Positions 11,155 to 20,249 of a stretch of 20,863 bases of DNA are shown here, piece after piece. The stretch is from NCBI GenBank assembly GCA_046760225.1, contig JBHIDR010000013.1, positions 1 to 20,863 of the forward strand, written 5' to 3'. Below the pieces are notes generated by a model, which did no database searches, was not told the origin of the DNA, and saw only the letters and a program-made list of their open reading frames with translations. This stretch comes from Candidatus Aenigmatarchaeota archaeon (lineage in GTDB: Archaea > Aenigmatarchaeota > Aenigmatarchaeia > Aenigmatarchaeales > JACQIB01). The position numbers and the translations under genes were made by a program. Each line of letters begins with the position of its first letter. Positions within the stretch are counted from its first letter, which is position 1.

Positions 11155-12090
11155 CTATCTCCTTCTTGCCTTATACCTGTAGCCCTTCTTCTTTGTTTTC
11201 AAGAAGTATGCTGCACCTGCTATTATTAAAATAACCACTACTGCAATCAGGACTGTGTAATCAGCAGCTTCTGTGGGTGCTTCTCCACCAGTTGGTTCTC
11301 CTTCATCTCCTGCTGGCGCACCTTCTCCTTCAGGAACACCCTCATCTGTTGGTGTTTCGCCCGGTTGTGCTTCAGCCTCTTCTGTCTCATTTGTTGGTGG
11401 TGCTCCTGTTGGTGCTGCTTCTCCTCCCTCTGCACCATCTCCTCCATCACCAGCACAGTCAGTGCAGCTTACTGAGAGCGATGCTGACTGGGAGCCTGCA
11501 TTCGAGCTTGTTATGCTTATTGATGCAGTGGTTGTAGCGCTTATGGTATAGCTGCATGTAAGGCTCTTGCTCTCGCCGCCGCCCACTCCGCCTGCTATTG
11601 TCCCATAGTCAAGAGAAGACGGGCTGCAGCCTGAAAGGGTTGCAGTCACGTCCTTTGCATTTGTCTCGCCAGTGTTCTGTATGTTTATGTTCACTGTCTG
11701 TGATGAGCCAGAAGTGCCAGAGATTGAATCAGCTGATACTGAGAGCGAGGGCGGAAGTATTACGTCAAAGCTGCTTGATGTGCCGGAATCAGGGGTACTG
11801 GATGTTGCGCTTATTGTCTGTGCGCTGAGCTTCTGGTCAGCTGTCACTGTCCATGAAAGCGGGCTGCTCCCTGTTTTCGTAAGCGAGTCAGATGTGGAGA
11901 AGCCTGTGGGAAGGCTCAGGCTGACCTGTGCTGTGCCTGACCATCCTGAAACAGAAACAGTGAAGGACCTTCCTTTCATAACTGTCCCTGGGTCTGCTCC
12001 TGCCTGGGATATGCCCACTGTGAGTGCTGCATGGCCAGGAAGGGAAAAAAGTAAAAATAAGACAATGGAGAACAAACTCATCCTCTTCAT
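11155..12090 (-). CDS. Secreted Ig/CARDB-like protein with acidic linker and C-terminal membrane anchor
   Basis: Signal peptide. Ser/Thr-rich beta domains with INIQNTGETNAKDV. E/G/A/P-rich linker, TM helix and basic tail KTKKKGYRYKARRR. Confidence 0.85.
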   Translation of the reverse strand: MKRMSLFSIVLFLLFSLPGHAALTVGISQAGADPGTVMKGRSFTVSVSGWSGTAQVSLSLPTGFSTSDSLTKTGSSPLSWTVTADQKLSAQTISATSSTPDSGTSSSFDVILPPSLSVSADSISGTSGSSQTVNINIQNTGETNAKDVTATLSGCSPSSLDYGTIAGGVGGGESKSLTCSYTISATTTASISITSSNAGSQSASLSVSCTDCAGDGGDGAEGGEAAPTGAPPTNETEEAEAQPGETPTDEGVPEGEGAPAGDEGEPTGGEAPTEAADYTVLIAVVVILIIAGAAYFLKTKKKGYRYKARRR

Positions 12091-15000
12091 TAAGGTCCAC
12101 CTCCACCGCCTTCAGCCTGTGCCCAAAGGTCTCCTATCTGGAACCAGTTGTCAACTGTCTCCGAGGTGCTGCCATATGTCACGTTCGTATTCAGCATGTA
12201 ATCTCCATCAGGCCATGCTCCAACAGGAGCCAGCTCTATCAGTGCATACCCCCCATCATCTGTGACGTTCTGTACGTAATTGACCGTATAGTCAGTGCTC
12301 TCTGTCAGTTTGGATGCACCGAATGCCCCGAACCTGTAGACAGTCAGCACTTCTGCTGTTGCACCTTGGATTGCTGACTGGTCAAAGTCATAAATCCTTA
12401 TTGCAAATGTGATGTTGTCCGTATTGTTTATCGTCCACCTGTCCTTGAAGAGCAGCATGTCTGTTTTGTTGTACCTCTTTATGTTCCATTCTGGCCTTAG
12501 CTCATATGGATAGCTCTCATTTATTTCCGCGAACCTCACGTTTCCATAATAGATTCCTGTCGGAGCATTGCCCCACTGCTCGCTTATTGAAGCCTGCTCA
12601 TTGCCGTAATAATCCGTGTAGGCTGCGCCTGAACCAGAGCTGTTCTGCCACCAGGGCTCTGTAATCATGGTATCATCATCTGTCAGTATGTTTGTCAGGT
12701 CCTGCTGCCCGTCCTCCCTGTCGTCAAACCCTATCATGTAGAACGTGCTGCCCAGCGACTTGTCCATGTCAAGGTCAAGTCCAACACTCGCCTCTGATAT
12801 TGCACCCGACCAGTAGGCTGGTGAATCATCAGCTGCCCTTACGTCAGCAGCAGGTACTGGCGGGGACACGCCAGTGCTGTTTATTATTACCATTCCGTCC
12901 CATGAGCCTGGTCCCACCCTTCCAAGGTAGAGGTCTGTGGCAAAGCTTCCGCCAATTGGCGTGCCTGAAACCCCAGTAAAGTTGCCGTCTGTACTGAACC
13001 ATGCGCTCTTTGCGCACTCATCAGTGTTCCATCTCGTGCACATCGGGTATTCAACTGATGTGTTGTTCGAAAGCAGCGCCATGTACTCTGCTCCGCTCAC
13101 ATTGTATGCTCCTGTCAGTGCCATTGCCCTCCATTTCGGTGCAGGGTTGCCTGACCAGTCCGAAATCCTTAGCGGTTCAATCACAGAAGAGTTCACGCCA
13201 TCAAAACCTACAACCACGCTGGCACTCGTTGCACTTGCATTGAGCACAAACAGCATGTATTTCTTGCCCTGATAGGTTATGTTTATCGGGTCGTACATAT
13301 CATACAGTGCTGTGCTTGATGTGTCATTGAACGTGCAGTTGGCTGTATTGACCCATAGCTTTGATGCATTTGCAGCAGTAACAAAATAGTAGTATCCCGG
13401 CAGGCTGCTCACAAATGTCCTGTTAACAGGGTCTATTCCAGCATCATCAGGCGGATATGCAACACTCCCAGGGCAATTGCTTATGGCCAGAGGGGATACT
13501 CCGGGGCATTCCAGGCTTGTGCTGCTGTTCTCTACAACCCTGTCACAGCCGTCAAAGTCAAGCACGCCCTCAATGTACATGTCTATGCTGGTGTCATTCA
13601 CAGTATACAGGTCCACCGGATCGCCGTAGTTTTCAGGGTCATACCTGTGGACATAAACCGGCTTGAAGTTTCTTATGTATCCTCCCATTCCCTGTTCAGA
13701 CCTGCTCAGGAATAACCTCACCCTTGTGAAAGGCCATTTCCATTCATCCAGATTTTCTGTTACGCCGTTTCTCTTCCCTATGATCTCGAACCTATACTCG
13801 CCTGCACCAAGAGCATAATCAGAAAGGTTTACCTTTATCTCGCCCTTTCCTGTTATCTCTTCTGTGACCCCGCTTCCAAGTGGCTTTATTTCCTCACCTG
13901 CTGTGGTCCTTACTCTTGCGTTCTTTACTGTGACATTCGCTGTTGTGTCAGCTCCTGCAGGTGTTGTAACAACAACAGGTATTGATATGTTGTCTCCTAG
14001 CTTGTATTCACCTATATCAGACCATTCACCTACTCCTTTGGAATATACCTTTATGTCCTCTGCCCTCGGATCGATATTAAGCAGTGTTATTGTGTCATTA
14101 TCCCCGAATGTTCTTGTGGATATATTGTCATTGATGCTTATCGGGTTTGTGAAATTGCTGTCACCAGAATAAAAGAACATGTCATAATATCCTGAGCTCG
14201 CATTGTCTGTCAGTGCAAAGTATACTGTATCATTGGTCATCCCGTTACCATTTATGTCAAGTCCTTTGTTGCCTGACATTGTCCATGCTCCCATCTGCTC
14301 TTCCCTCAGCATTCCTATCTTCACTTTCTTGCTTTGAGTATAGTTCGTATTTATGTAGGACCCTGTTTCTGCAAGCACGTTCTCCCCGCTAAGCTTCATT
14401 ACATTGTTGCTCAATGACTTTACCTTCCATTCCCCTCCATACGGGTCTGGTATTACCTGGTCTATGGCATAAGCAGTTGCACCGCTCATGTCAGTTCCTC
14501 CAGACATCCAGAGGTGCGTTGTGTTATGATAAGCATAGGCTGGCTTTGTTGTATTGAATCCTGGGAACTGTTCTTCCAGTCCCTCACTCCTTGCAAGGTT
14601 GACATATCCATGATAATAGGTTGTATCGGTTTGAGGAGGTATAAGAACATAGCTGTTCTGAGCACAGCCACCTGTGCCACAAACCCAGCTTTCACCGCAT
14701 ATCTTTCCGTCTGTATGCCTTAACTGAAGGTCATTGCTATCAATATTGGTTATGTTCCATGTCTTTCCTGCCAAGCTGAAAGTAGAATAGTTTGTCATTG
14801 CTGTTTCTGCAGAAAGATTTGAGCTGTTCCCTATCCATGCATGCGTATCATTCCTGACAACATACGCCTCGGTCCCGTTCGGGAAATAACTGCAGTCCCC
14901 CCACATCCATTGGCCAACAGTGTCTATGCAGTACTGTGCAGACCTGTAGCTGTCGCTAATATCTTTCTGTAAAAACTCTATGTCCACGCCATCACATACA

Positions 15001-18000
15001 TGGGTTGTGTTGGACGAGCACGTGTCAGGCACAGCATTTATTTGGTTGTCGCACCTGTCCTGGTTGTAGACGTCTCCTGACTCAAAATCAGGGCTGTCTG
15101 TTGTCCATACCCATCCCTCGCTTAAAACAGGGACCCCAAGCACATAGTTCTTGACAAAGAAGTCTATTCCCTCTGTCTTCTCCACCCCACTGGTGTCATT
15201 GATGTTGAACTCTGCAAAATAGAATCCTGATGTCAGGCTTACATTGAATGTCACATTGCATACATTGCCTGTACAGCTTGTTGAATAGTTGGCCTTCTCA
15301 GGCTTTCCGAGCTTCTCATTGAAGATCCTGTAAAGCCCTGTGCCTTGCGTACTGAGGTTGTGCGGGCTGTTATTGAAATCAGTCGCAGTGAACGTGACTG
15401 TTATGTTCTCGTACGGCTCGAAAACAACAGGCCACTGGTCGCTTCCCCTGTACTTTGTATCAACCTTGTAGCTTGATGTCTCAAACCAGAAGCTTCCTAT
15501 ATCAGATTTTCCGCCCACAGTGAACTTGACATTTGCCTGGTGCTCTCCTTCCCTTTCCAGGCCTGTCAGATTGAAGACATACATCTCTTCTGTACAGCCA
15601 GGCCCATAGCATCCTTCCATACTGACATTCTGGAGGCTTACGCTGGATGAATATGAAACAGGCGAAGGTGGTCCCCTCATGCTGTAGTACAGCACGTTTT
15701 CTACCACAGGAGCGCTGTCAGGAGTCAGTATGTCCCAGGTTCCTGGGTTTCTTGCCACAGCAGAGAACAGCACATCACCGCTCTTTTCAAAGCTTCTTGT
15801 TTCCCAGCTCATGGTATAGTTCTGGCCGTCATACTGCACCCCAGCCGTATCAATAAAGAAGTTCCTTATCTCGAACCAGCCCCATCCCATATAGGTGATG
15901 TTTGAGTTGTCAGGGTCCCTGAGTATTATGTCAACACCATACCAGCCTGTTGGGATGTCAAGTGTGGGTTGCGCTGCGCTCGGCCCTGTCAGCGTTATGG
16001 TTGCGCCTGATGTTGAATTTGTCACAGCTCCCTTTGACACATTGTAGTCTGATGTTGGTATTTCCTTCTCAATCTGGAAGTTTATCAGCTTGTCCACCTC
16101 AGCTATCAGACCTGTGCAGCCAGTGCAGCTCATGCTCCCGCCAACACCGCCCACAAACTTTCCTTTCTCAATGTCAACAACATTTACCTTCAGTGTCACG
16201 TTCTTCCCTGAATTAACAAAACAGAAGTTCTGGCCGCAGTCAACTTCTGCCCAGATGAAATACTTCTTTAGCATGAAGAACACATCGCCTGTTCCTTCCA
16301 TCTCTGTTCCTCCCACATCAGCCTTGAACCTGAATTTTGCCAGGAAGAAGCCCTCGCTGTTTGGTGATGTGAAGGAAATCGTGCCATTGGCAACGCTCTC
16401 ATTTGCAGCTGCCCTGTATGCAGGAGTGAACACATCCTGTCTTGGCTCTGGGAACTCCTTCCACATCTCAATTAGTTTTACGCTTGTTATGTTTTCTCCT
16501 GGTATTTCTGTGTCCGTCAGAAGGTCCCTTACATTCAGCTTTATCCTCACAGTGCTGTTCGGTGCAAAGAAGCCGAACTCCTCCCCATGGAAGTCCACTG
16601 TCTTTCCCCGGGCAAACAGCCTTTGCACACCAAAGGTAGAGCCTGCTTCCTTTGTCTCGAGCGGATGCGCAACCTTGACAACTGCATTGTATATCCCTGT
16701 CTTGTTGGGAGCAACGAATATTATCATGCACTGCCTCTGCACTTCTTTTGGTGGTCCCTCACCTCCTGGAGGCTGCATATCAGAAGGGAGGTAGTCAATA
16801 GCATCAGTAAGGTTCTTCACTAAGTACGATATGCTGCCCAGATAGGAGACCCCGTTCTCGTCTGTGAGCTTTTCCAAGGTCACATAGTCATCACATTCAT
16901 CGTCTGCTGTTGAGGAATTGTCGATGTCAACCATGCCTGTTGGCCCTTCAGGACCGAATCCCCCTCCTGTAACATTCTGCAGCATCACCATCAGTGTCAT
17001 GTTCTTTCCTGGTGCGAATGCTGTTACAAATGCTCCTGGCCCCTCGGCCTCATCAACATACTTCGTGTTTATGGGCTGTATTGTAAGCGTTAATGTCTCG
17101 ATTGCAAACCCGAGGTTTATTGTCTGCTGGTTGCTGCTGCTGTCTGTCCCGGTTATCTGTACCCCGTATTCGCCTGTTGGGTATCCTGTAGAGTCCCATT
17201 CACCTGAATAAGAGCCTGTTGAATCAACAGACATGCTCACAGATGTTGAGCTCCCATTTGGCAGGATTATCGATGTGGATATGGAGGAAAGATTGAACAG
17301 CGCTCCGGCAAGTGTTTTCGAAAGTGCTTCGAATTTTATTTTCGAGTTTGGTGCAAAGCTGTAAGTGGGGGAGCCTGTTACATCGGTTACCTTGCCAAAG
17401 AGCCTGAAGGCCTCCACGCTGAATATCTCTACTGCAGTGTCATTGGCATTTATTGTATAGATACCTGCTGTGCTCGGTGTGCTGAAGCTTGAATTGAAGT
17501 AACCCCAGCTGTTCGTGGTACCAACCAGGCTGTTGACAACAGTGCCGGCCTTGTTCCTTATTGTGATGTTGACAGCTACTGCCTGGTCCTGCTTCAGGTG
17601 GTGCGTGCTGTTTTCCACGAACATCATGAAGTAGGCTGTTTCTCCTGTGCCATAAACAGAATCAGGCACAGGAATGGCAAGGAACACCTTGTTTCCTGTA
17701 CTGAACTCTATCTTCTTTATTAAATAGCTTTCGAAAAGCTTTCCTTGTTTCAGCTGCCTTTCCACATTGTCCCCGTCCCCACTATCCTCTGTATCATTGT
17801 AGAGCCGGAAATCCATGTCATCATCTACATAGAGGGTGTCATAGGTCTCGTTTAAGTTCTCATCAACAAGAACAAAGCTCCAGTTCCTTCCTGAGAAATT
17901 GTAAAACCCATAATGCAGTGTTCCTGACTTGGAGAGGTCCCTCAGCTCAGTGAAGTTCCCTCCCATTGCATTGTCTGTTGTAATAAGTGTGCTCGTGTTT

Positions 18001-18389
18001 ATCGGTATTATGCTCGTGTTGTTTATCAGGTTCGCCTCATGGGTCAGCAGCTCTGAAACAACCTTGTAATGTATTAGCACATAGTCCGAGCCGTTGTACA
18101 CCCTTGCAGTATAGTCATCAGCTGCACCTGCAGAAAAAGAGAAAACATAGCTCCCACCAGAAACGCTCGTGTTTGTTGTGCTGAGCACAACATCAGAGGT
18201 GGAGTTTGTTACATTGAGCGTTAGCAGAACACTCGCAGCACTTGCATTTCCTGTTATTCTTACTGTGTCACCTGTCTCGTATATTATCTTGTCCGCACTG
18301 CCGCTTATTGTATAGGCACCTGCTGCTGAAGTCAGCACAAGCGAAAAAAATACAGTTATGATTATAAATTTTCCTTTATTCAATCCCAC
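12090..18389 (-). CDS. Giant secreted multi-domain surface glycoprotein (~2099 aa)
   Basis: Signal peptide, many NxS/T sequons, repeated Ig/MG2-like domain starts, Cys pairs, no C-terminal TM. Start is GTG 18389 or TTG 18383 (after GGGGTG). Confidence 0.9.
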   Translation of the reverse strand: MGLNKGKFIIITVFFSLVLTSAAGAYTISGSADKIIYETGDTVRITGNASAASVLLTLNVTNSTSDVVLSTTNTSVSGGSYVFSFSAGAADDYTARVYNGSDYVLIHYKVVSELLTHEANLINNTSIIPINTSTLITTDNAMGGNFTELRDLSKSGTLHYGFYNFSGRNWSFVLVDENLNETYDTLYVDDDMDFRLYNDTEDSGDGDNVERQLKQGKLFESYLIKKIEFSTGNKVFLAIPVPDSVYGTGETAYFMMFVENSTHHLKQDQAVAVNITIRNKAGTVVNSLVGTTNSWGYFNSSFSTPSTAGIYTINANDTAVEIFSVEAFRLFGKVTDVTGSPTYSFAPNSKIKFEALSKTLAGALFNLSSISTSIILPNGSSTSVSMSVDSTGSYSGEWDSTGYPTGEYGVQITGTDSSSNQQTINLGFAIETLTLTIQPINTKYVDEAEGPGAFVTAFAPGKNMTLMVMLQNVTGGGFGPEGPTGMVDIDNSSTADDECDDYVTLEKLTDENGVSYLGSISYLVKNLTDAIDYLPSDMQPPGGEGPPKEVQRQCMIIFVAPNKTGIYNAVVKVAHPLETKEAGSTFGVQRLFARGKTVDFHGEEFGFFAPNSTVRIKLNVRDLLTDTEIPGENITSVKLIEMWKEFPEPRQDVFTPAYRAAANESVANGTISFTSPNSEGFFLAKFRFKADVGGTEMEGTGDVFFMLKKYFIWAEVDCGQNFCFVNSGKNVTLKVNVVDIEKGKFVGGVGGSMSCTGCTGLIAEVDKLINFQIEKEIPTSDYNVSKGAVTNSTSGATITLTGPSAAQPTLDIPTGWYGVDIILRDPDNSNITYMGWGWFEIRNFFIDTAGVQYDGQNYTMSWETRSFEKSGDVLFSAVARNPGTWDILTPDSAPVVENVLYYSMRGPPSPVSYSSSVSLQNVSMEGCYGPGCTEEMYVFNLTGLEREGEHQANVKFTVGGKSDIGSFWFETSSYKVDTKYRGSDQWPVVFEPYENITVTFTATDFNNSPHNLSTQGTGLYRIFNEKLGKPEKANYSTSCTGNVCNVTFNVSLTSGFYFAEFNINDTSGVEKTEGIDFFVKNYVLGVPVLSEGWVWTTDSPDFESGDVYNQDRCDNQINAVPDTCSSNTTHVCDGVDIEFLQKDISDSYRSAQYCIDTVGQWMWGDCSYFPNGTEAYVVRNDTHAWIGNSSNLSAETAMTNYSTFSLAGKTWNITNIDSNDLQLRHTDGKICGESWVCGTGGCAQNSYVLIPPQTDTTYYHGYVNLARSEGLEEQFPGFNTTKPAYAYHNTTHLWMSGGTDMSGATAYAIDQVIPDPYGGEWKVKSLSNNVMKLSGENVLAETGSYINTNYTQSKKVKIGMLREEQMGAWTMSGNKGLDINGNGMTNDTVYFALTDNASSGYYDMFFYSGDSNFTNPISINDNISTRTFGDNDTITLLNIDPRAEDIKVYSKGVGEWSDIGEYKLGDNISIPVVVTTPAGADTTANVTVKNARVRTTAGEEIKPLGSGVTEEITGKGEIKVNLSDYALGAGEYRFEIIGKRNGVTENLDEWKWPFTRVRLFLSRSEQGMGGYIRNFKPVYVHRYDPENYGDPVDLYTVNDTSIDMYIEGVLDFDGCDRVVENSSTSLECPGVSPLAISNCPGSVAYPPDDAGIDPVNRTFVSSLPGYYYFVTAANASKLWVNTANCTFNDTSSTALYDMYDPINITYQGKKYMLFVLNASATSASVVVGFDGVNSSVIEPLRISDWSGNPAPKWRAMALTGAYNVSGAEYMALLSNNTSVEYPMCTRWNTDECAKSAWFSTDGNFTGVSGTPIGGSFATDLYLGRVGPGSWDGMVIINSTGVSPPVPAADVRAADDSPAYWSGAISEASVGLDLDMDKSLGSTFYMIGFDDREDGQQDLTNILTDDDTMITEPWWQNSSGSGAAYTDYYGNEQASISEQWGNAPTGIYYGNVRFAEINESYPYELRPEWNIKRYNKTDMLLFKDRWTINNTDNITFAIRIYDFDQSAIQGATAEVLTVYRFGAFGASKLTESTDYTVNYVQNVTDDGGYALIELAPVGAWPDGDYMLNTNVTYGSTSETVDNWFQIGDLWAQAEGGGGGP

Positions 18390-18501: not shown

Positions 18502-18509
18502 TTTATAAA
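18502..18509 (+). promoter_or_regulatory. TATA box of the SRP RNA gene
   Basis: TTTATAAA centred about 26 nt upstream of the predicted 5' end (G18532). Confidence 0.75.
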
Positions 18510-18701
18510 GATTGATATTCAAGATTTCATTGGCAGGGAGCTAGACTGGGGGGCTCGTCCTACCCTGTAAGCGCAAATGGGCGTTATGGTGCGGTCGAAG
18601 CTTGAGGGCGGTGCAGGAAGTCTGTAAGGTCCTGCTAGCCAACTGAGAAGCGCCGTCCTGCAGAGTTGGTGTTATAGCGAACTGGGTCAGACTGGGAACA
18701 G

Positions 18702-19338
18702 AGGAGGATAAGTGATGGAAATGAACGAAGCATATTTGGTAGGATACACTATTGGAGACGGCTGTCTGTATAGCTGTAGCCATGTGTTTAGTTTGGACCC
18801 TAGAAAGAGTCTAATGGACTACGAAATTACGTGGGGCGATAAAGATTTGGAACAGTTGGGGCTAATTGAGAGAATAGTAAAATCTTTGTTTCCTCATGTA
18901 TACCTAAAAACAAAGATTAGAAAAAAATCAAAGGGCAAAATCCTCAGGTGTCGTAGAAAAAAAGTTTTTTTACACCTTAAAGAGCTGCTCTCTAAAGATA
19001 TGAAAAGTGAGACAAAGGAAAACATAGCAGCCTTTATAAGTGGGTTTTGTGATGCCGAAGGTGATATCGGCAAAACCAATAATGGAACATACAAAGGCAA
19101 GATATACTACAAGCCCCGTATCCAAGTAACTCAAAAAGATAAGGCTATCTTAGAACAAATAAAGGAGTTACTTGAAAAAAAATTCAATATAAAATCTAGA
19201 ATTCATAAAAAATGGGATCAAGACGCATATATCTTGCAGATAAGTGGATGTAAACAAGTATCTATTTTCAAAAAGGAAATAAATTTTAGAAATCCTACCA
19301 AATGTGCAAAGTTAGAAAGTATACTTTCCTCCGTTCAA
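18702..19338 (+). mobile_element. 637-nt bulge-helix-bulge archaeal intron in SRP RNA helix 8, carrying a homing endonuclease gene
   Basis: Central 4-bp helix GAAC (18696-99)/GTTC (19333-36). 3-nt bulges AGA (18700-02) and AAA (19337-39). Intron-side helix GGAGGA(T)AAGT (18703-13)/ACTTTCCTCC (19323-32). Cutting after the second nt of each bulge restores the SRP54-binding motif. Confidence 0.88.
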
Positions 19339-19356
19339 AGCAGCCCTAAGTTGTAG
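18715..19356 (+). CDS. Double-motif LAGLIDADG homing endonuclease (intron-encoded)
   Basis: Motif 1 AYLVGYTIGDG, motif 2 AAFISGFCDAEG, then RIQVTQKD..ILEQIKELL..F.I.S.I. SD GGAGG at 18703-07, start ATG 18715 (or GTG 18712). Visibly AT-richer than the flanking genes. Confidence 0.9.
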   Translation: MEMNEAYLVGYTIGDGCLYSCSHVFSLDPRKSLMDYEITWGDKDLEQLGLIERIVKSLFPHVYLKTKIRKKSKGKILRCRRKKVFLHLKELLSKDMKSETKENIAAFISGFCDAEGDIGKTNNGTYKGKIYYKPRIQVTQKDKAILEQIKELLEKKFNIKSRIHKKWDQDAYILQISGCKQVSIFKKEINFRNPTKCAKLESILSSVQSSPKL

Positions 19357-19446
19357 CATCAGCGTTTGCAGGGTCGCGGCGTGGAGAAGGCTGACAGGGT
19401 AAGCTTTATGGGTTTTCTGTATCAACCAAAGGCATGCTTCCTGCCA

Positions 19447-19455
19447 TTTTTATTT
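19447..19455 (+). terminator. T-tract terminator of SRP RNA, overlapping the TATA-like TTTAAA of the next gene
   Basis: TTTTTATTT directly after the 3' strand of helix 1. Confidence 0.6.
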
Positions 19456-19475
19456 AAAGGGATGCAATGATTTTT

Positions 19476-20249
19476 ATGGCCAGGAAGAGAAGGAAAACAA
19501 GCAATCTCCAGCTTGTCCTAGTTGTACTGGTTGTGTTCCTTGCAGGCGTTCTCACAGCCCTGCAGTTCATGGAGCCAAAAGAAATTATTCAGCCAATACA
19601 GGTAATAAAGAACCTCACTGTCCCGCCCCAGATTAGTGAAGGTTCTCGGGTGGAGATGCTCGTTCCAGCAGTGGACACGGATGGCAATGGCGTCACAACC
19701 AGGCTAATGGTAGAGGCAAAGCCAGGCACAGGAAAGGTGCTTACCAATATCGACATACTGCTCTTCTGGGTGGACACCCAGCAATCGATACAGGTTGCAA
19801 GGGACGTTGCAAAGAACATAACAGGCATAGACACTGATGCGCTTGACATCACATATGCAATAGAGGCAGACAATGTGAGCCTTGTTGGCGGTCCTTCAGC
19901 AGGCGCTGCCCTCACAGTTGCCACTATTGCTGCGCTCCAGGCAAAGCAGCCCGACCCAAATGCAGCAATAACAGGCACAATAAACCCGGACGGAACAATA
20001 GGAAAGGTCGGTTCTGTGTATGAAAAGGCAAGGGCAGTGAAAAGGGACAATGTCATGACATTGCTCGTGCCCACCGGTGAAGGCGTTGAAATCACAGTAA
20101 GGCCAATTGAGAAATGCATAGAAGAGCCCGAGTTTACTTTCTGCGAGACCTACTACAAGCAGAAGAAGGTCAATATAGGGGAAGCACTTGGCATGGAAGT
20201 CATAGAGGTTGGCAATGTCTCAGAAGCACTGCCCTATTTCTTTGAATAA
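19476..20249 (+). CDS. Membrane-anchored Lon-type (S16) serine protease domain protein without ATPase
   Basis: N-terminal TM, GGPSAGAALTVA (catalytic Ser), ITGTINPDGTIGKVG..YEK (catalytic Lys). Start is 19476 or 19467. Confidence 0.9.
   Translation: MARKRRKTSNLQLVLVVLVVFLAGVLTALQFMEPKEIIQPIQVIKNLTVPPQISEGSRVEMLVPAVDTDGNGVTTRLMVEAKPGTGKVLTNIDILLFWVDTQQSIQVARDVAKNITGIDTDALDITYAIEADNVSLVGGPSAGAALTVATIAALQAKQPDPNAAITGTINPDGTIGKVGSVYEKARAVKRDNVMTLLVPTGEGVEITVRPIEKCIEEPEFTFCETYYKQKKVNIGEALGMEVIEVGNVSEALPYFFE

Follow-up and report, generated by a model that had tools for sequence, protein, structure and literature searches.

The window analyzed here is a stretch of 20,863 nt from Candidatus Aenigmatarchaeota archaeon (GenBank assembly GCA_046760225.1, contig JBHIDR010000013.1, positions 1 to 20,863 of the forward strand). 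Towards its right-hand end lies an archaeal signal recognition particle (SRP, 7S) RNA gene, at approximately 18532-19446, that is interrupted in helix 8 by one insert. The insert is an intron of the bulge-helix-bulge (BHB) type, 637 nt long (18702..19338) and defined by the gap against intronless relatives, the BHB fold, and covariation, and it carries an open reading frame (ORF) for a predicted LAGLIDADG homing endonuclease. The intron-encoded part of this frame (18715..19338), assigned from Pfam, PDB, and an AF2 model, runs for 208 codons without a stop. All of these features lie on the plus strand. The stop-less ORF is real and recurrent, and would be best explained by a mobile intron so extremely compact that its splice signals overlap with its coding sequence.

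A scan of the whole window with Rfam at the gathering threshold returned no matches. Under permissive thresholds, RF01857 gave a partial match at 18534-18645 (35.1 bits, E 3e-6) that covers part of the RNA only, the Alu domain, and leaves the unspliced gene below the family's gathering threshold of 96.5 bits. It is the sole SRP RNA match in the genome, an assembly of 851 kb in 83 contigs that is 83% complete. An uninterrupted SRP RNA of ~270 nt, scoring above the cut-off, was found in 22 of 30 relatives, all 30 of which have small genomes of 0.4-1 Mb. Window positions 18530-19450 were aligned with the SRP RNAs of 20 relatives, which score 113-188 bits with RF01857; three further matches without a locus were left out. 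The SRP RNA of the window matches that of a same-genus genome (L012) and of the 19 other relatives end to end and base for base, bar one insert. Without 18702-19338, helix 8 is exactly as long as its L012 counterpart, and its elements follow in the order 5' strand, GGAA tetraloop, CAG, and conserved AGCAGCC. It is on this colinear alignment with 20 relatives that the host gene is identified as SRP RNA. Exon 1 (18532..18701), placed by the partial RF01857 match and the alignment, ends with the 5' strand of helix 8, the GGAA tetraloop, and CAG. Exon 2 (19339..19446), placed by the alignment, opens with AGCAGCC, which belongs to the asymmetric loop of helix 8; behind the exon comes a T-run (19447-51) that we infer to be the terminator of the gene. 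A TATA-like box, TTTATAAA (18502..18509, plus strand), was read from the sequence ~27 nt upstream of the SRP RNA 5' end and, given this spacing, is presumed to be the archaeal promoter.

Folding of the 914-nt precursor and co-folding of the junction stretches (ViennaRNA) gave a BHB, a 4-bp central helix between two 3-nt bulges on opposite strands, whose 3' half lies within the coding sequence. The 5' half (18696..18702) consists of the central-helix strand GAAC (18696-99) and a 3-nt bulge, AGA (18700-02). The 3' half (19322..19339), translated as ...LSSVQ, consists of the 3' strand of an intron-internal helix termed h2 (19322-32), the central-helix strand GUUC (19333-36), and the bulge AAA (19337-39). 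The 5' strand of h2 (18703..18714) pairs with 19322-32, includes a Shine-Dalgarno (SD)-like GGAGG (18703-07), and is also the leader of the ORF. Past the 3' bulge follows a weak outer helix, a CUG/CAG pairing behind a G.G mismatch or, in the ViennaRNA fold, a 2x2 loop. Cleavage in a BHB falls after the second bulge nucleotide, and the cuts are placed at 18701/18702 and 19338/19339. An AG repeat at the borders permits three equivalent 5' cuts (18701/02, 18702/03, and 18703/04), each with a matching 3' cut; the equivalent intron boundaries are 18703-19339 and 18704-19340, and all three placements yield identical products. The splice sites proposed in an earlier note on this DNA, made from the sequence alone, are borne out by the alignment with the 20 intronless relatives, within the border shift that the AG repeat allows, and by the BHB fold. 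Two other structures were rejected. A BHB with the bulges 5' of the central-helix strands gave no motif, the fold having the opposite arrangement, and a group I intron is incompatible with an ORF that takes 624 of the 637 nt, leaving no space for a ribozyme core, and with the presence of a BHB.

Related introns were sought through the protein and through pattern matches in contigs. The protein database held 13 endonuclease homologs of 204-225 aa with 50-61% identity. Scans of genome contigs yielded 2 intron loci, from 3 confirmed among 8 pattern matches, while scans of metagenome contigs yielded 15 loci from 136 pattern matches, 10 of them close relatives. Five distant or partial metagenome loci (L034-L038) are omitted from the intron counts, L029 and L030 were merged with L023 and L022, with which they share the same values in every measure, and L033 was dropped as it runs into a contig end. 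The resulting comparison set contains 10 distinct complete introns, the window included, which are homologous and hence not independent trials. All 10 occupy the same position in SRP helix 8, have an intact full-length ORF whose end is flush with the 3' splice site, form the central helix (GAAC 18696-99 with GUUC 19333-36 in the window), and have the leader up to the AUG as one strand of h2. Across the set, 98.1% of 160 cells are paired and 10 of 16 pairs have changed on both sides, figures somewhat favored by the derivation of the BHB structure from the same 10 sequences. Compensatory changes occur in all six tested pairs of h2. None of 500 shuffles matched the observed pairing, and sliding the partner strand by 1-3 columns reduced it to 35-47%.

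Enzymes for splicing such an intron are also encoded in the genome, namely RtcB (497 bits) and two paralogs of EndA, one of 163 aa and one of up to 202 aa, of which each has the PF02778 and PF01974 (N and C) domains. The EndA paralogs lie at G000:C2 (L056, 1297-1788 and 2254-2862), with a 189-aa ORF between them. By eye, a His seems to be retained in the presumed catalytic stretch of the second only, which would point to an alpha/beta heterotetramer. Possession of two paralogs suggests an (alpha-beta)2 enzyme with broad specificity, and the (alpha-beta)2 type is described in a passage of PMC6379350 as tolerating relaxed BHBs. The RtcB match is split (G000:C35:1477-2834, L057/L058): its main body (1677-2834) is in a different frame from the part that matches profile positions 3-52 (1477-1704, containing 2 TAG), and the cause could be an insertion, a frameshift, or misassembly. 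The earlier note's claim that excised archaeal BHB introns circularize agrees with a statement in PMC4344496. Taking together the covarying BHB, the two EndA paralogs with RtcB, and this published circularization, it is plausible that the SRP intron forms a circle.

The start of the ORF at ATG 18715 aligns with the starts of its homologs, and GTG 18712 is an alternative. Within the h2 leader, right before the start, an in-frame TAA (18709-11) blocks the frame on its upstream side and rules out a start in exon 1. This same TAA would end reading of a circle at the start site, were the leader length a multiple of 3. The protein matches LAGLIDADG_3 (PF14528, 57 bits against a cut-off of 22.5, E 2.3e-15) and LAGLIDADG_1 (PF00961, 30.3 bits against a cut-off of 23.1, E 8e-7), and its best PDB match by sequence is I-DmoI (E 3e-4). 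An AF2 model (pLDDT 92.3, pTM 0.88) shows a pseudo-dimeric alpha-beta-beta-alpha-beta-beta-alpha fold, for which the top Foldseek matches are I-DmoI chains (E 3e-11, TM 0.66/0.77). Both LAGLIDADG motifs are present, with G14-D15-G16 and D113-A114-E115 invariant in 14 sequences; we take the acidic residues of the two (G-D-G and D-A-E) to be catalytic, as in I-DmoI. The product is thus predicted to be a LAGLIDADG homing endonuclease with two motifs, resembling I-DmoI. The model's last helix comprises residues 194-208, and pLDDT falls below 50 at residues 211-213, which are exon-coded, so that any residues added beyond the intron are appendages to a complete fold.

The intron is compact to the point that its 5' leader and last ~17 coding nucleotides would double as the two strands of the BHB, and for this reason the end of the frame invariably coincides with the 3' splice site. 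Re-reading the sequence confirms that CAA (19336-38) is the last intron codon, in frame and abutting that site. As this codon is CAA rather than UAA in the window, termination depends on what follows, and three RNAs provide different continuations. On the linear sequence, the ORF (18712(GTG)/18715(ATG)..19356) reads ...SVQSSPKL, the exon-2 codons (19339..19356, plus strand) adding SSPKL before TAG 19354-56; an unspliced precursor would accordingly give 213 aa. On a circle, 637 mod 3 = 1 shifts the frame, and reading resumes at 18702 in the +1 frame for 23 extra codons, up to the TAG at 18771..18773 (plus strand). The resulting 231-aa product would have a basic tail of 23 residues, RRISDGNERSIFGRIHYWRRLSV. 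A linear excised intron has no stop in this frame, and its product would be 208 aa long with Q208 as the last residue. Re-translation confirmed both the precursor and the circle reading as given in the earlier note. Both tails predicted in its proposal of two C-terminal variants are correct; it overlooked the linear excised intron, a non-stop template, as the third of three candidate mRNAs.

The absence of a stop is a recurrent state in the family. The last intron codon is CAA in three introns, CAT in one, TAT in three, and TAA in three, leaving seven of ten without a stop inside the intron. The first base of this codon is also the last base of the central helix: a C gives a G-C pair (4 introns, including the window with its C at 19336) and a U gives a G.U pair (6 introns). 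On the protein tree, at least 2-3 changes between stop and sense are needed among the 10 rows. With the codon serving at once as a BHB nucleotide, the stop would therefore have been gained or lost by single substitutions. In the relatives with TAA, the protein ends at residue 207. L027 and L028, sister introns of L023, retain TAA as their last codon.

Past the splice site, the seven stop-less introns diverge. Their precursor tails are SSPKL, SNPKLQLPRLMDN, SSH, SRPKS, SKPKL, SRPKL, and SSFNHNH, and several endonuclease homologs end in S-x-P-K-L/S as the window does. Their circle tails are the 23 residues above, KREST, none (endless), R, R, RWISNEQ, and WIKANGYG, with erratic lengths of 23, 5, 1, 1, 7, and 8 codons. 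Neither kind of tail is conserved. The endless case is the L023 intron (167-805, with the same values in L029), which measures 639 nt (3 x 213) and has a 15-nt stop-free leader, so that a circle would carry an ORF without end. As the tails are unconserved and lie beyond the predicted fold, a distinct function for the isoforms is unlikely, and the difference between them is probably neutral.

The distribution of the element is patchy. Of the 371 genomes sampled in the phylum, only 2 have a close homolog of the endonuclease: that of the window and G173, whose locus has its first 200 coding bases in common with L022. Such sporadic spread at one conserved site fits a homing element. A search of sequencing runs for the locus gave only four DNA runs, all of one hydrothermal-vent study, and no RNA run. 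Contigs from the four runs carry the insert at >=99% identity with 2-4 base differences; the single-base differences from the window are at 18956, 19108, 19113, 19195, 19216, and 19387. Five of these fall in the ORF and one falls in exon 2, and they point to closely related strains in the study that the DNA came from. Contigs of these four runs included no intronless version of the locus, a result that says little on heterogeneity as contigs lose rare variants. Another 14 genomes of the phylum have distant LAGLIDADG ORFs (E 1e-11 to 1e-13), among them G005:C12:436-996 (L043); G005 belongs to the same family as the window's genome and gave no SRP RNA match. The host genes of these distant ORFs could be further interrupted RNA genes.

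Which of the three RNAs serves as the template is the central question raised by the stop-less frame. We give about an even chance to the reading in which the endonuclease is made mainly from the unspliced precursor and the SSPKL tail is incidental. The comparative evidence tilts weakly toward translation of the nascent precursor. All seven stop-less introns meet an in-frame stop 3-13 codons into exon 2, whereas in the same frame of the 20 intronless relatives a stop follows within 13 codons in 7, at 15-30 codons in 7, and nowhere within the RNA in 6. The three TAA introns would otherwise have exon tails of 10, 11, and 20 codons. A further argument comes from the leader. In the excised form of each of the 10 introns, it folds up to the AUG into a hairpin (-12.9 to -17.6 kcal/mol; -12.9 in the window) with a 7-nt loop at the junction, and from this modeling we infer that the leader is free only before the 3' end of the intron is transcribed.

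The element is a BHB intron, presumably mobile, set between the GGAA-tetraloop stem and AGCAGCC and filled by an endonuclease gene, in a small-genome (DPANN-type) archaeon. On the precursor reading, ribosomes would translate the nascent unspliced SRP RNA precursor while the leader is unpaired and its 3' partner still untranscribed. They would then traverse the 3' strand of the BHB and terminate at TAG 19354-56, leaving a disordered, functionally neutral tail of 5 exon-coded residues. Once the ribosomes have gone, the BHB could fold, EndA would cut at 18701/02 and 19338/39, and RtcB would ligate the exons and circularize the intron. The ribosome-binding region would stay within an 11-13 bp hairpin in the excised intron, making the circle at most a minor template; a circle, if read, would give the 231-aa form with its basic tail of 23 residues.

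Several points weigh against this account. The exon-2-stop contrast (Fisher one-sided p = 0.004; 0.015 when collapsed to 5 clades) comes from few, related sequences, with a threshold picked after the data had been viewed. Helix h2 can equally form in the full-length precursor and hide the leader there, so that masking favors nascent transcripts only. Six of the seven stop-less introns reach a stop on the circle, five of them within 8 codons and near the AUG, and in L022 the circle TGA overlaps the ATG, a pattern compatible with termination-reinitiation on a circle. An SD-like leader is not shared throughout the family, and in the window SD-like motifs precede 5 of 16 long ORFs against 657 of 4170 background 15-mers, by a rough count a modest enrichment. 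The 3' bulge is also not fully canonical but slightly relaxed, being either a 3-nt bulge with a G.G mismatch behind it or, in ViennaRNA, a 2x2 internal loop. Lastly, I-DmoI is reported, in the abstract of Dalgaard et al. from 1993, to be expressed from the linear and the cyclized intron and not from the precursor. If this holds, the sole experimental precedent points against translation of the precursor.

The circle as a real mRNA, with ribosomes crossing from 19338 to 18702 in the +1 frame to make the 231-aa isoform beside or instead of the 213-aa form, is a possible if doubtful competitor. The frames are correct, the BHB with EndA and RtcB makes circle formation likely, and the stop within 8 codons and beside the AUG in 5 of 7 stop-less introns is what such a reading would draw on. 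Precedents are the circularized BHB introns of PMC4344496 and the circular intron of Desulfurococcus mobilis, which according to a passage in PMC11724312 encodes a 194-aa endonuclease. I-DmoI is also reported to be expressed from excised forms of its intron. The earlier note names I-DmoI as the precedent for an ORF completed across the circle junction; the papers searched gave no position of the I-DmoI ORF relative to that junction. Against these stand a circle tail that is unconserved in length and sequence and lies outside the predicted fold, an L023/L029 circle without any stop, a leader locked in a hairpin of -13 to -18 kcal/mol in the excised form of all 10 introns, and the return of DNA runs only from the search for the locus. 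A stronger version, that the SRP-RNA introns are natural prokaryotic circular mRNAs which express the endonuclease from an RtcB-closed circle and whose missing stop is an adaptation, we consider unlikely. Were it true, a ribosome would cross the junction, melt the hairpin that hides the start, terminate beside the AUG, and re-initiate; the L023 lineage would perform rolling-circle translation of an endless ORF; and endonuclease output would be coupled to SRP RNA splicing.

Translation of the linear excised intron appears improbable. Ribosomes would run to its 3' end and the 208-aa product would be freed by archaeal no-stop rescue, which is of the Pelota/ABCE1 type. Positions 18715-19338 hold no stop, and a linear intermediate must exist between cleavage and ligation, but it would be short-lived if RtcB is active and its leader is masked as well. 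Non-stop translation is moreover wasteful and usually selected against, and 7 of the 10 family members would bear the same burden. That the gene is a decaying, unexpressed passenger, its stop loss an early erosion, is more improbable again: homing endonuclease genes often degenerate after fixation and the stop state is evolutionarily labile, but all 10 introns keep an intact, full-length ORF (50-61% identity), the acidic residues of both motifs are invariant, the AF2 model is of high confidence, and the sporadic spread (2 of 371 genomes) fits an active mobile element. An assembly chimera or misplaced splice sites would void the frame argument altogether. The window does come from a metagenome-assembled genome in 83 contigs, but the insert recurs at >=99% identity in contigs of the four DNA runs (one study), the identical site is occupied by a further nine distinct introns taken from other assemblies, and the splice product matches the relatives' SRP RNA base for base, making an artefact extremely improbable.

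The closest known system is the I-DmoI intron of the D. mobilis 23S rRNA gene. Both introns reside in a stable RNA, follow the BHB/EndA route, measure ~0.6 kb of which almost all is ORF, and encode a monomeric two-motif LAGLIDADG enzyme. They differ in the host, here SRP RNA, in the protein, at ~23% identity, and in the lack of a stop within the intron described here; the I-DmoI intron forms a stable circle. I-Tsp061I (PDB 2dch), an archaeal rRNA-intron endonuclease that comes after I-DmoI among the fold matches, shares the fold class (Foldseek E 2e-10) and the kind of element, yet endonucleases of its type sit in 16S/23S rRNA genes of Thermoproteota rather than in the SRP RNA of DPANN-type genomes. 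In Thermoproteus, as described in part of PMC4731332, a permuted SRP RNA is BHB-processed and circularized by the tRNA splicing endonuclease and RtcB, and a 2015 proposal set out there derives permuted SRP RNA genes from an ancestor with simple BHB introns. The SRP gene of the window is by contrast unpermuted and holds a true intron, complete with an endonuclease gene; any circle formed would consist of the intron, not of the SRP RNA. The circular 7S RNA segments that Danan et al. report, in the portion of PMC3326292 concerned, are likewise not introns. Translated circular RNAs of eukaryotes and of a viroid-like satellite RNA, as presented in sections of PMC11724312, offer parallels in that a circle length that is not a multiple of 3 shifts the frame and creates a circle-specific C-terminus, and the endless-ORF circles treated in that source resemble L023 (639 nt, no stop). 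Compared with the eukaryotic examples, a circle here would be prokaryotic and made by RtcB instead of backsplicing, and its translation is hypothetical. The literature searched, which left most subscription journals outside, contained no earlier endonuclease-bearing BHB intron or LAGLIDADG gene in SRP RNA. The archaeal protein-coding BHB introns in that literature lie in rRNA genes, and SRP RNA would be a new host gene.

The interrupted gene has a protein-coding neighbor on either side. On the minus strand, a giant ORF of 2099 aa (12090-18389) ends ~140 nt upstream of the SRP RNA gene; its sole Pfam match is an MG2 (alpha-2-macroglobulin-type) domain at residues 245-319. Directly downstream of the presumed SRP RNA terminator, a 260-aa ORF (19467-20249, plus strand) combines a hydrophobic stretch at its N-terminus with a Lon_C proteolytic domain (E 5e-9). 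A tRNA search of the window found none.

Introns of this kind, inserted in the SRP54-binding helix, defeat Rfam detection of SRP RNA in genomes, as the 35 bits against 96.5 bits obtained here illustrate. The family supplies the SRP RNA introns that the 2015 study of permuted SRP RNA, in the part of PMC4731332 that treats their origin, only postulated. In its members the same nucleotides act as splice signals and as coding sequence, and the stop flips by single-base changes. The family is a natural system in which to ask which RNA form an archaeal intron ORF uses, the precursor, the linear intron, or the circle, a question that has stood since I-DmoI, and one member, of the L023 type, would test rolling-circle translation in a prokaryote.

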